Part shown: positions 15,233 to 20,957 of the stretch, one piece after another | How the letters are laid out: the number at the start of each line of letters is the position of its first letter | How positions within the stretch are numbered: position 1 is the stretch's first letter | Assembly: GCA_040225955.1 (NCBI GenBank) | Contig: JBECUL010000038.1 | Location: 1 to 21,391 of the forward strand | Reading direction: 5' to 3' | Source of the DNA: Candidatus Asgardarchaeum abyssi | GTDB taxonomy: Archaea > Asgardarchaeota > Asgardarchaeia > Asgardarchaeales > Asgardarchaeaceae | Length of the DNA: 21,391 bases | Position numbers and translations under genes: made by a program | Notes under the pieces: generated by a model | Told to the model about the DNA's origin: nothing | Databases searched by the model: none | What the model saw: the letters and a program-made list of their open reading frames with translations, nothing else

Positions 15233-17167
15233 CTATTTTAAAGAAATTCCTTCTTTCTCAAGGACTTCAAGAATGTCACTCAACTCGAGTTCTTTAAGTT
15301 TCTTTACTGTTGGCCAACCAGTCTCTTTGTCCCAACCTCGTAGTTCATAGTATTGATTTAGCATATAATCCAATTCGACCATTGGAGGTTCTGTGCTACC
15401 ATCAACTTTTGGAACAATCTTAATTTCCTTCAGATCTTTGTCTGGATCAAACATTTTAAGTGGCTCATTCATTATACGATAAGGTAGTTTATCATCCTTT
15501 CTTGAGTATCCGTGCCTAGCGTTATATGCTCGTTCCAAGTTAACAATACGCTCACCTATTTTTAGCAACACGTCTGTTGAGAATTCAACACCAGTCAGAT
15601 ATGTTAAGCCCTCTGCAACATCTTCTGGAAATATTGCCCAAGTCTCAGAAGTTGTAAATTTGCAAATACCAACTGCATCACTAATAGCACAGAAATTCTC
15701 AGACACAACAACCATATTTGCTTTATATTTAGGTGAGCGTGGATTCAGCATTTCATTTAACCATTCCTCTGGAAATAGCTTCTTTGCAGCTTCATAATTC
15801 TGAGCAACAGCTAGTGTTGGAAGGGCATATAAATGATCAGCTCCTCTATTTGAAACGGCATGGCCTAAACCGAACCCTCTCGTTGCACGAGGCTCTTGTC
15901 TTGGTAGCTCAACTCCCTTAACCGTCATTAAATATTTTTCAGATCCCTTTCCAATCTTCTTAGCTGCAATTTCAGATCCTTCGGCTAAGATATCACCGAT
16001 ACCTTTTCTAAATCCAATCATTTTAATCAGTTCAATAGCTGCTTCACCATTACCCCACGTTAAATCAAGACCCACATCCTCTTTAGTTAGGATTCCCCGT
16101 TCATATAATTCCATTGCCCAAGCCATTGTAACACCAGTACTTATAGCATCAAGTCCTAAATCATTTGCAAGAATATTAAGCTTAGCAACCGTATTTAGAT
16201 CAGAGATCCATAACATAGGACCCAAGCTATCAATGGTTTCATATTCCATGCCCTCAAATATCACATTATCGACTTTTATGAGTCGCCCGCAATGTATCGG
16301 ACAAGCAAAGCATGATGTAGGTCTAACTAAGATAGTTTTTGATATTTTCATGCCATCAAGCTCATTCGCAAATGGAACATTACCTAACTGATGATTTTTT
16401 GCTGGTAAATCACCTTTGAAGTTTTTCCATGCAACTAAAATTGATGTCCCGTATTCACCGTAAGCCTTAGCTCCTTCATTATTCCTTATTTTTTCATTTA
16501 CATCCTTTACTTTTTCTTTGAACTTTTCTTCGTTTGCTATATTGATTTTCTTCGTTCCCAAGGCGACTATTGCTTTAAGCCTCTTAGATCCCATAATAGC
16601 GCCTATTCCAGTTCTAGCAGCAGCTCTGCCATCATGAATCACTGCGGCAATTCGTGAAAGTTTTTCTCCAGCGGGGCCAATGGATGCTACTTTACTTTTC
16701 TTGCCGTGTTCATCAATTAGGATTTTTTCAACTTCTGATGTCATTTTCCCCCAAAGATGTTCAGCATTCTTTATTTCCACAGTGTCATCTGTTATAAGAA
16801 GATAAACTGGTTTTTCACTCTTGCCTTTAATAATAATCATGTCAAAACCTGTCGCTTTTAATGAGGCACCAAAGAACCCACCAAAGTGGGCATACCCTAA
16901 AGCATTTGTTAGAGGAGATTTCGCAGCTATAGTTGTTCTAGAGGCAGTAGGCCAGAGAGTGCCTAGAAATGGACCCACTGAAAATATTAGAAGATTATCT
17001 GGTGAAAATGGATCTACACTTGGTGGAACTTGATCAAAAAGTATTTTTGAAGCGAAACCACGACCACCTAAGTATTTAAGTGCGAGAGCTTTTAAAAGCT
17101 CTTTAGTATCAACTTTGGATTTTGATAAATCAACAACAGCATACTTACCATTCCAGCCATACCACAT
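15233..17167 (-). CDS. aor: Aldehyde:ferredoxin oxidoreductase family (W/Mo-bis-pterin) enzyme
   Basis: LGGRG, KSPLT, MGSKRLKAI, CFACPIHC, EYET, DLGLDAIS, RGADH, GICKF and YYELRGWD motifs. ATG 17167 follows AGGTGA. Confidence 0.93.
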   Translation of the reverse strand: MWYGWNGKYAVVDLSKSKVDTKELLKALALKYLGGRGFASKILFDQVPPSVDPFSPDNLLIFSVGPFLGTLWPTASRTTIAAKSPLTNALGYAHFGGFFGASLKATGFDMIIIKGKSEKPVYLLITDDTVEIKNAEHLWGKMTSEVEKILIDEHGKKSKVASIGPAGEKLSRIAAVIHDGRAAARTGIGAIMGSKRLKAIVALGTKKINIANEEKFKEKVKDVNEKIRNNEGAKAYGEYGTSILVAWKNFKGDLPAKNHQLGNVPFANELDGMKISKTILVRPTSCFACPIHCGRLIKVDNVIFEGMEYETIDSLGPMLWISDLNTVAKLNILANDLGLDAISTGVTMAWAMELYERGILTKEDVGLDLTWGNGEAAIELIKMIGFRKGIGDILAEGSEIAAKKIGKGSEKYLMTVKGVELPRQEPRATRGFGLGHAVSNRGADHLYALPTLAVAQNYEAAKKLFPEEWLNEMLNPRSPKYKANMVVVSENFCAISDAVGICKFTTSETWAIFPEDVAEGLTYLTGVEFSTDVLLKIGERIVNLERAYNARHGYSRKDDKLPYRIMNEPLKMFDPDKDLKEIKIVPKVDGSTEPPMVELDYMLNQYYELRGWDKETGWPTVKKLKELELSDILEVLEKEGISLK

Positions 17168-17204
17168 AGTAACTTCACCTAAGAACATTTATAAAAACGT
17201 ATTA

Positions 17205-18119
17205 CTAATGAGCAAATAAACCTATTTTCTCGATATATTTTAAGGTAATTCCTCTAAAGTCGCTAAGAGAACTGTAATTCTTTCGTTCCATAAAATCCTT
17301 TAATTCATCTATTATTTCATTTATCACTTTTACACCCTTTTGTAGAACAATAGTACAAAGTTGTACAGCATGTGCACCAGCCATTACCATCTTTACTACA
17401 TCTAGTCCACGAGTAATTCCACCTACTCCAAAAATTGGAATCTTTACTCTTTGAGCAATACCAGCAACTGTTCTTAATGCGAATGGTCTAATTGCATGTC
17501 CAGACAACCAGCCCTCTCCACTAGGACTACCCAAATAAGGTTTACCAGTTTCAGGATTTATTTCTAGGACAGGGCCTACAGAGTCGATCGCTGTTATCGC
17601 ATCAGCTCCTAACTCTTCTGCTTTCTTAGCAACATTAAAAACCTCATCTTTCCAATTTGCACTTAGTTTAACAGATATAGGAAGATCTGTTTTAGGTCTA
17701 GCGACCTTAAGCATTGGGATTATTTGAGAAGCATCATATGAAACCAACTCAATCATGTCAGCACCACTATCTTTAACTAGAGGGACTATTGTTTCAGCAT
17801 CCTTTACAGAGAGCCCTATGCTAGCAATTACACGTATTCCGTATGATTTAGCTAATTTTATTTCCTTTTCTAACCACTGTTCATACGGCAAATCTGACCA
17901 TTTTTCAGCATTAATTAATATAAGGTCATCAACTTTTGCAACAGCTGGTTTTGGATTTACGGCTGGAACTAAATTTAGCGTCTTTGTTACAACCCCCGCT
18001 ACGCCAGCTTCAGCAACTCTCTTTATCGTTTTGTGATCTCTTGTTAAAGGACATGAACTAATAATTATTGGATTTTTAAATTTAACACCAGCAATATCTA
18101 CACTTAAGTCTAAACTCAT
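17205..18119 (-). CDS. Dihydroorotate/dihydropyrimidine dehydrogenase-like FMN protein with an atypical active site
   Basis: FKNPII, VVTKT, SVKL, LSGHAIRP, GVGGI and AGAHAVQ are present, but the NxSCP loop is replaced by ELVSY. Start overlaps the upstream stop (TAATG). Confidence 0.85.
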   Translation of the reverse strand: MSLDLSVDIAGVKFKNPIIISSCPLTRDHKTIKRVAEAGVAGVVTKTLNLVPAVNPKPAVAKVDDLILINAEKWSDLPYEQWLEKEIKLAKSYGIRVIASIGLSVKDAETIVPLVKDSGADMIELVSYDASQIIPMLKVARPKTDLPISVKLSANWKDEVFNVAKKAEELGADAITAIDSVGPVLEINPETGKPYLGSPSGEGWLSGHAIRPFALRTVAGIAQRVKIPIFGVGGITRGLDVVKMVMAGAHAVQLCTIVLQKGVKVINEIIDELKDFMERKNYSSLSDFRGITLKYIEKIGLFAH

Positions 18120-19712: not shown

Positions 19713-19731
19713 AAAAAAGAAAAAACAAAAA
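19713..19731 (-). terminator. Oligo-T archaeal-type terminator after the BMP gene
   Basis: TTTTTGTTTTTTCTTTTTT on the minus strand, 5 nt after the stop codon. Confidence 0.55.
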
Positions 19732-19736
19732 TTTAA

Positions 19737-20957
19737 TTATGGCTTTGGAGCATTTGGATCTACGCCTTCAACATAGAAGTTAATTGACCATAGCTGGTCA
19801 TGAGTTGCTCTCTGACCGTCAGCTAGCCATTGGGTGCCATTCTGGAAGTTAATTGGTCCTGTGTATGGATCAAAGACTACAGTTTCTTCGCTCATTAATT
19901 CAAGTAGTTCGAAGACAAGATCATATACGCTTATTTGTTCGCCAGTTATTGGATGAGTTGCCATCTTGTTCTTTAGTATATTTTCGAATCTTGGATTTAT
20001 TGGAACACCAAAGTCAGCGCCTAACTCGACAGCACCTTCCTTCAGCATCCACCAGTAGTCAACATTTTCTAAGTTAGTTGTGTTATAAGCACCAGAGTAC
20101 ACCTTAGATAGTATGTCTTCATATATAACCTCCCAGTGAACTAGCTGACCGCTAACAACAACATCCGTACCGAATTTTAGCATAGGACTGTAGTGTGCGA
20201 ATACAAGAACTGTTCTATTCGCCTGATCATATAGGCTTTGAGCATATTCAACTATTGCAGCAGAGTCCTCAGTAAATGCGATAGCATCAACATTATCGTC
20301 AAATACTAATGATTCGGCAGCATCTCTTGCTTTGGTTGGATCATACCAAGCGTGAATAACTCTTATGTGAACTGTAACATTTGGATTTACTGTTCTTGCA
20401 CCCAATACAAATGCATTTATATGTCTGACAACTTCTGGGGTTAAGTGAGCCGCCACATAGCCTATGTGGCTTGTATTTGTAAGTGCGCCAGCCATAAGAC
20501 CGTTAAGATAGTATAGCTGATAGAACTCAGCGAAGTAGGTACCCATGTTCTTCCATCGTTTGTATCCAGAGCAGTGGAAGAATATTTTATCTGGATAATT
20601 CTGAGCAGCTTCTAACGTCGGATCCATAAATCCAAAGCTTGTAGTGAATATTACATCAGCACCCTGGTTTATGAGATTTTCAATGTAGCTCAATGCTTGA
20701 CCTTCAGGAACGCTCTCTGCATAAATAGTCTCTAGCCAGTCAAACTTTTCATCAACCCATTGTCGACCATAGTCATGCGCATAGGTCCAACCAATGTCAC
20801 CAACAGGTCCAATGTAAATGAATCCGGCCTTTAGGACTCTTTTAGCACCTGGAGGTGGAGCAACTGCTGGCAGTGCAAAGTAACCGATACCAGCACCTAT
20901 AAGAATACCCACTATAAGGACTACTGCGAGAGACAATAGCTTACCTTTCTCTGCCAT
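19737..20957 (-). CDS. BMP family ABC substrate-binding protein (nucleoside/purine type), N-terminal membrane anchor
   Basis: GFIYIGPVGDIGWTYAHD, TTSFGFMD, HCSGY, PEVVRHINAF and WYDP motifs. AGGTGA SD. Confidence 0.92.
   Translation of the reverse strand: MAEKGKLLSLAVVLIVGILIGAGIGYFALPAVAPPPGAKRVLKAGFIYIGPVGDIGWTYAHDYGRQWVDEKFDWLETIYAESVPEGQALSYIENLINQGADVIFTTSFGFMDPTLEAAQNYPDKIFFHCSGYKRWKNMGTYFAEFYQLYYLNGLMAGALTNTSHIGYVAAHLTPEVVRHINAFVLGARTVNPNVTVHIRVIHAWYDPTKARDAAESLVFDDNVDAIAFTEDSAAIVEYAQSLYDQANRTVLVFAHYSPMLKFGTDVVVSGQLVHWEVIYEDILSKVYSGAYNTTNLENVDYWWMLKEGAVELGADFGVPINPRFENILKNKMATHPITGEQISVYDLVFELLELMSEETVVFDPYTGPINFQNGTQWLADGQRATHDQLWSINFYVEGVDPNAPKP

Follow-up and report, generated by a model that had tools for sequence, protein, structure and literature searches.

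The closest described counterpart of the locus treated here is the reductive uric acid/2,8-dioxopurine pathway of the C. difficile type, which employs XdhD, UacX, SsnA, HyuA, UacY, YgeY, and YgeX (PMC12507026; bioRxiv 10.1101/2025.04.24.650524). In such urate clusters, the reduction of 2,8-dioxopurine is carried out by the PF01180 protein UacX, in coupling with SsnA (PMC12507026). The AOR/WOR family of tungsten enzymes has a known physiological role in only 5 of 92 clades, mostly aldehyde oxidation, and the text of the paper reporting this mentions neither purines nor amidohydrolases (PMC13328260). Members of these groups stand side by side in the window analysed here, a stretch of 21,391 nucleotides that makes up the entire contig C38 of the genome of Candidatus Asgardarchaeum abyssi (2.6 Mb, 93% complete). 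Three genes on its minus strand encode an SsnA-sister metal-dependent amidohydrolase (18119..19468, PF01979, 449 aa), predicted to be a ring-opening hydrolase; a UacX-sister FMN TIM-barrel reductase with the DHOD/DPD fold (17205..18119, PF01180, 304 aa); and an AOR/WOR-family large subunit of what is here called clade a (15233..17167, PF02730 and PF01314, 644 aa), predicted to be a tungsten-pterin (de)hydroxylase. With a probability of about 0.5, this triad would supply the redox and ring-opening steps at the heart of a reductive pathway by which a purine-like N-heterocycle is broken down anaerobically. Such a pathway would be a paralogous sister of the 2,8-dioxopurine route and would most likely act on another base.

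The conserved unit consists of three genes, the SsnA-like hydrolase, the UacX-like flavin reductase, and the AOR, and not of four. An earlier note on this DNA had added a BMP gene and had set co-conservation across genomes beforehand as a test of its proposal; the three enzymes are co-conserved and the BMP protein, treated below, is not. The nearest homologue of the reductase (83% identity) is labelled Ca. Asgardarchaeia, and its locus retains the order hydrolase-reductase-AOR. Bathyarchaeia also carry the three genes in this arrangement. Reductase-family loci retrieved by a scan of species genomes number 80 and are mostly bacterial (Spirochaetota, Bacillota, Chloroflexota, Thermotogota, and others), so that the label "archaeal" given to the pathway in the earlier note has to be dropped. 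Among 84 reductase loci, the same hydrolase subfamily is present in 65 and stands directly upstream of the reductase in 50. The same loci hold clade X1 of the xanthine dehydrogenase (XDH) family (32), clade-a AOR (31), the sister clade-b AOR (18), a YgeY-type peptidase (32), a carbamoyltransferase (30), a hydantoinase (19), and a UbiD decarboxylase (9), and YgeX was found in none of the 84. Loci picked by the AOR, which overlap partly with the reductase-picked set, contain a purine-pathway-type gene in 29 of 37 long loci and the hydrolase or the reductase in 23. Two variants were observed along the way. In eight bacterial loci (L047, L052, L058, L070, L071, L077, L100, L106), a YgfK/GltD-like NAD(P)H-FAD module is joined to the reductase in one polypeptide, giving proteins of approximately 790-860 aa with a YgfK-like architecture. 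In two other loci (L133, L162), a luciferase-like gene of the F420 type accompanies AOR-a, AOR-b, and the hydrolase, and no flavin reductase lies nearby, a gene set echoing the F420 variant proposed for Chloroflexota (PMC12507026).

The clade-a AOR shares approximately 40% identity and the fold (TM 0.89-0.90) with the AOR of Pyrococcus furiosus. It retains R77, T241, the cysteines C286/289/293/502, E308-Y309-E310, and H445, and thus resembles 1AOR, 9MQX, 9G7J, and 8C0Z, with their four cluster cysteines, pterin-binding Arg, Thr243, Glu311-Tyr312-Glu313, and His448. Three members of the second shell of broad-aldehyde AORs (Thr243, Glu313, Tyr427, His448) are kept. The fourth, the catalytic Tyr427, is replaced by Q424, a change that holds throughout the clade and is invariant in an alignment of 30 sequences, and an Asp precedes the His. 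Tyr427 is conserved in aldehyde-oxidising AORs, where it has been proposed to position the aldehyde, and in known WORs altered at this residue (WOR4, WOR5/ASOR) the activity is lost or different (PMC12096430). The Gln424 could, as a speculation, bind a lactam edge. A quick tree places clade a, well supported (100), apart from the other AORs of the genome, of which there are about 11 genes with this single clade-a member. The sister clade b has the same Gln for Tyr427, and the cluster cysteines as well as Thr, Glu, and His are intact in both. Of 150 genomes examined from the phylum, the source genome alone has a clear clade-a gene, the others having related Gln-type AORs or other clades with lower scores. 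The metal is probably tungsten; the genome encodes a tungstate-binding protein, WtpA, over cut-off at C31:20657. As in Class I WORs, the large subunit stands by itself, no gene for a small subunit being adjacent. A different arrangement was seen in three Asgard loci (L250-L252, from genomes G028, G010, and G024), where a UacX-clade reductase and an SsnA-side hydrolase lie among two to three Gln-type AORs. Each of these AORs is accompanied by a ferredoxin-like subunit, and no XDH is present within 20 kb.

The clusters hold two clades of the XDH family: X1, which comes with an FAD subunit, and X2a, which has none and scores best with XdhA models. At the locus level, clade b is never accompanied by an XDH (0/18 against 42/65 of the remaining loci), and clade a never by the XdhA/XdhD-side group (0/31 against 14/52). 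In 49 genomes, X2a is present in 2 of 32 with AOR-a and in 14 of 17 without it (12 of 17 at a strict threshold), and X1 in 1 of 15 genomes with AOR-b and in 29 of 34 without it. The two slots are filled in 46 and 44 of the 49 genomes, respectively. The swap is seen separately within Spirochaetota, Bacillota, and Chloroflexota. Between AOR-a and X2a it also holds among genomes without AOR-b, most of which carry the molybdenum enzyme X1 (1/17 against 14/17), and therefore does not merely divide tungsten users from molybdenum users. The source genome fits the pattern, with AOR-a, no X2a, and no clade b, and with FAD-linked XDH genes near X1 at C17. An AOR in place of the XDH family, as the earlier note had suggested, is thus supported as far as the XdhA-like X2a is concerned, but not for XdhD. 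A role of AOR-a as a substitute for the urate reductase (XdhD/DOPDH) was hinted at by the locus counts and was discarded, given that XdhD-like genes co-occur freely with AOR-a at the genome level (12/32 with it, 8/17 without).

Several points weigh against a role in ring chemistry. The clades behind these counts were assigned by thresholds that the author chose from bit scores, and the genomes are incomplete metagenome-assembled genomes, the related ones among them not being independent, with p-values overstated as a result. Exceptions to the exclusion are the genomes G155 and G160, in which AOR-a and X2a occur together, and Zhaonella, in which the two are adjacent. Purine-type neighbours are missing from 8 of the 37 long AOR loci and from the closest relatives of the AOR (64%), and one near relative of the reductase stands alone. 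In the literature searched, no tungsten enzyme of the AOR/WOR family was found that hydroxylates a heterocycle. Nor is the swap alone proof of ring hydroxylation, because XO-family enzymes oxidise aldehydes too.

The main alternative is considered unlikely. In it, the triad would serve the same pathway, with the clade-a AOR acting late, oxidising an aldehyde released by ring opening and returning low-potential electrons to the reductase via ferredoxin, and X2a would also be an aldehyde oxidoreductase. The retained Thr, Glu, and His of the aldehyde-oxidising site, together with the full fold, are in line with such a function, and every characterised Class I WOR takes part in the oxidation of aldehydes (PMC13328260). 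Besides, YgeX is missing from the source genome, from all loci, and from 44 of the 49 genomes, so that the carbon skeleton must exit another way. X2a, however, is nearest to XdhA models and not to aldehyde-oxidoreductase models, and the sister AOR clades share the exchange of Tyr for Gln while each swaps with a different XDH clade. The Asgard loci with UacX- and SsnA-clade genes argue in the same direction, as they have Gln-type AORs and no nearby XDH and yet need a ring (de)hydroxylation. In formal terms, converting a ring CH=N into a lactam involves the hydride transfer and oxygen addition that also oxidise an aldehyde, and XO-family enzymes do both; ring oxidation is therefore a chemically reasonable role for an AOR.

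The two partner enzymes tie the triad to purine catabolism. The best NCBIfam match of the hydrolase is SsnA, with 333 bits against a cut-off of 444. On the SsnA models (TIGR03314/PRK07203) it obtains 327 against 455.5 and 333 against 444 bits, whereas the SsnA of C. somerae scores 588 and 657. Its metal ligands H66, H68, H225, and D313 are retained, as is E228 of the HxxE motif, whereas the strand-6 His is replaced by Q262. In the tree it belongs to a sister clade of SsnA (support 99-100). The genome has approximately 12 deaminase-type amidohydrolases, including C18:1600 (in C18:235-2949), which is 47% identical to the window hydrolase, shows the same His-to-Gln change, and sits behind a hydantoinase.

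The model of the reductase (pLDDT 96.6) is closest in fold to pig DPD (TM 0.83-0.86), and its top NCBIfam matches, PreA and PyrD, remain under cut-off (171 against 335 and 161 against 269 bits). The catalytic Cys loop is absent in this protein and throughout its family. It is also absent in UacX, for which proteins assigned by synteny in C. somerae, C. novyi, and C. butyricum stood in here (identities to the window reductase of 39%, 33%, and 30%), which makes the deletion a family trait. The window protein is, like UacX, a DHOD/DPD barrel without the Cys loop adjoining an SsnA-type gene, and the tree places it in a sister clade to UacX. The ring-binding Asn of UacX corresponds to D179, and the residual loop differs too. 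Most relatives have a C-terminal 2x[4Fe-4S] domain that is absent in the window reductase, which would therefore need free ferredoxin. Direct feeding of the reductase by the AOR was considered as a reason for the loss of this domain and left aside; the domain is also missing in the unlinked UacX-clade protein of the genome and in one stand-alone relative. Short motifs similar to the YgfK N-terminal domain appeared in a non-significant profile comparison and were not used as evidence. Three more loop-less or altered DHOD-like paralogues are encoded in the genome (C116:3136, C11:233, C3:52247).

As sister clades of SsnA and UacX, the hydrolase and the reductase bear out the link drawn in the earlier note to anaerobic purine catabolism of the ygfK-ssnA-xdhD type. 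The altered active sites it reported in both enzymes are real (Q262 in the one, D179 and the missing Cys loop in the other), and the AOR is altered as well. Its deduction of a non-standard substrate stands only in part: loss of the Cys loop is no mark of an exotic substrate, UacX-type proteins being without the loop as well, and a different substrate is probable on other grounds. The source genome has separate genes of the SsnA clade (C10:19057, grouping on the SsnA side in the tree) and of the UacX clade (C11:233, inside that clade), and SsnA is found over cut-off elsewhere in 35 of the 49 genomes with a window-type pair. In the loci examined, canonical SsnA usually stands beside YgfK or UacX. 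Because the canonical enzyme coexists with it, the window pair appears to be a retained paralogue, which favours a different substrate.

The same evidence bears on a second explanation, which is rather improbable, namely that the three enzymes duplicate those of the known urate/2,8-dioxopurine pathway, as redundant isozymes acting on the same substrate. The nearest characterised relatives are indeed SsnA and UacX, the downstream gene types are the same, and the Bathyarchaeia genomes have the window-type hydrolase and no SsnA over cut-off. Redundancy would not explain, however, why most of the same genomes keep the canonical SsnA at a separate locus, nor the fixed active-site changes (Gln in place of His in the hydrolase; in the reductase, Asp in place of Asn and an altered residual loop), nor the tolerance of AOR-a for XdhD-like enzymes. 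A third possibility, an ordinary PreA or PyrD of pyrimidine metabolism next to an AOR for general aldehyde detoxification, would agree with the top matches of the reductase and with its DPD-like fold but is largely refuted and very improbable, given the scores under cut-off, the deleted catalytic Cys loop, a separate PyrD-like gene at C27 near pyrimidine-synthesis-type genes, and the position of the AOR in a cluster-specific clade.

Under the preferred reading of a reductive heterocycle pathway, three steps can be proposed. In the first, the clade-a AOR, with a bis-pterin metal centre and ferredoxin as the carrier, would introduce an oxo group at a C=N carbon of the ring or take one away, which would be the job of the XdhA-like molybdoenzyme in genomes without AOR-a. 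Following the logic of the known pathway, two pterin-metal steps, each carried out by a molybdenum XDH or by an AOR, may set the oxo pattern of the ring. In the second step, suggested by homology to UacX and YgfK, the FMN enzyme would give a hydride to a ring C=N; the reduction of an imine-type bond needs no Cys acid, so that the lost Cys loop would be explained. In the third, by homology to SsnA, the coupled hydrolase would open the unstable dihydro ring and pull the reduction forward. Hydantoinase, carbamoyltransferase, and YgeY-type genes located elsewhere in the genome would complete the degradation, with ATP formed via carbamate kinase. Candidates recognised by homology are C18:235 and C13:2427 (hydantoinase), C4:46500 and C72:1 (carbamoyltransferase), C48:14900 (YgeY), and C167:453 (carbamate kinase). 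YgeX, the diaminopropionate ammonia-lyase, was not found in the 93%-complete genome (19 bits against a cut-off of 274). It is present in 5 of the 49 related genomes, and most genomes with canonical SsnA are without it; these anaerobes must therefore finish the known pathway with a different last step.

More tentatively, and at somewhat less than even odds, clades a and b may be tungsten-dependent N-heterocycle hydroxylases/dehydroxylases in which chemistry of the xanthine-oxidase type arose independently on an AOR scaffold; they would swap one-for-one with two molybdenum XDH clades and serve a widespread, undescribed second reductive pathway whose substrate is not urate (another oxopurine, an amino-substituted purine, or a pteridine). 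A purine derivative is the most likely substrate, in view of the XDH-family partners, the downstream ureido-removing enzymes, and the purine-type BMP next door. An oxo- or amino-purine other than 2,8-dioxopurine has an even chance of being the compound in question. The 2,8-dioxopurine itself is an unlikely candidate, a pteridine or other fused ring is unlikely to the same degree, and any further compound is more doubtful still. Hints of a pteridine are provided by two accessory enzymes, a UbiD nearest to the heteroaromatic decarboxylase of 6H6V and a RibD/DHFR-like reductase nearest to Rv2671. The xanthinase pathway is also said to use a UbiD decarboxylase.

The BMP/PnrA-family solute-binding protein (19737..20957, minus strand, PF02608, 406 aa) is of the purine-base-binding type and has a hydrophobic N-terminal anchor. 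Its best solved relatives are the Brucella protein 3S99, in which adenine was modelled, and AtzT (6PI5), which binds guanine with a KD of 110 nM (PMC6834077). By alignment, the stacking aromatics (W57, equivalent to Y45, and W204), the Ser-Phe pair S107/F108, and the Glu contact E175 are retained as in both relatives, whereas two Asn contacts (N218/N220) have become T229 and D231. The gene is nevertheless probably a neighbour outside the conserved unit. Its membership in the operon, as assumed in the earlier note, found no support: BMP genes were near the reductase in 3 of 84 loci and near the AOR in 1 of 53, none is present in the 83%-identical locus, and 268 bp, a distance that the earlier note does not mention, separate the gene from the hydrolase. 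No partner permease or ATPase was found in the 434 bp up to the contig end or downstream of the gene; two PF02653 matches sit on other short contigs of the genome. Among the contigs listed from four sequencing runs, none bridges the gap between BMP and hydrolase, which is uninformative either way.

The layout reported in the earlier note was otherwise accurate: all four open reading frames lie on the minus strand with matching domains, the TAATG stop/start overlap of hydrolase and reductase is exact (18117..18121, read from 18121 to 18117), and so is the gap of 37 bp between the reductase and the start of the AOR. The likely starts are 19468, 18119, and 17167, in agreement with homologue lengths, and GGTG-type ribosome-binding motifs precede 19468 and 17167. 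The overlap suggests translational coupling of hydrolase and reductase. The AT-rich intergenic stretch of 268 bp (19469..19736, minus strand), with a T-rich run right after the BMP stop, likely contains a terminator and a separate promoter region; within it, a sigma-70 scan gave nothing above chance and Rfam gave no match. One contig of an independent sequencing run covers 17026-19432, comprising the AOR start, the reductase, and the hydrolase, which rules out that the triad arose by misassembly. Short contigs of one metatranscriptome fall on the AOR, reductase, and BMP genes, although such contigs cannot reveal transcription or operon structure. Matching reads come from marine and hydrothermal sediments, and no family-level relative of the source genome was present in the genome set searched.

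Other genes surround the triad. An ABC permease, an ATPase, and a DUF364 protein are encoded at 10153-12693 on the plus strand with no adjacent binding protein; the best model for the ATPase is tungstate WtpC (316 bits against a cut-off of 440), and the genes possibly form an importer of a metal oxyanion or cofactor. An FlK-type thioesterase (13472-13876, minus strand) lies downstream of the AOR at a distance of 1.4 kb, and a 4HBT thioesterase stands immediately after the AOR of the 83%-identical locus; in other loci, it was not seen as a regular neighbour. In the window, 48 bp past the AOR stop, a protein of 163 aa (14693-15184, minus strand) has repeated winged-helix PCI-like segments, a eukaryote-like domain typical for Asgard archaea.

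If the proposed function is correct, a clade replacing XDH-type enzymes would be a new reaction type for WORs, and tungsten and molybdenum would solve the same step with unrelated proteins. The swap pairs are AOR-a with X2a and AOR-b with X1, and the molybdenum version is found in the cultured hosts Acididesulfobacillus acetoxydans and Paradesulfitobacterium ferrireducens. Alongside the urate pathway, sediments and digesters would then harbour another anaerobic route for degrading heterocycles, with a bearing on nucleobase and cofactor recycling by anaerobes and by Asgard archaea. The literature searched holds no report of AOR-family enzymes in purine catabolism, most subscription journals being outside its coverage.

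The triad can thus be regarded as a widespread, undescribed sister of the anaerobic uric-acid route found in gut bacteria in 2025, whose reduce-and-open logic itself is already published. As in the C. difficile-type pathway, an FMN reductase without the Cys loop is coupled to an SsnA-type hydrolase, a pterin-metal enzyme adjoins them, related loci hold hydantoinase, carbamoyl-removing, and YgeY-type genes, and a ferredoxin-type electron supply is expected. It differs in that the hydrolase and reductase are sister paralogues under the family cut-offs with fixed active-site changes, that it coexists with the canonical system, that YgeX is generally missing, and that the carbamoyltransferase is ornithine-carbamoyltransferase-like and not YgeW. 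The AOR-family enzyme, in turn, occupies the slot of XO-family enzymes. It is predicted, like E. coli XdhA and XdhD/DOPDH, to (de)hydroxylate a ring C=N carbon, but it has an unrelated fold and cofactor type and excludes the XdhA-nearest X2a and not XdhD-like enzymes. From AORs of the 1AOR type it is set apart by the Gln in place of Tyr427, the Asp before the His, and a separate clade tied to heterocycle-catabolism genes.

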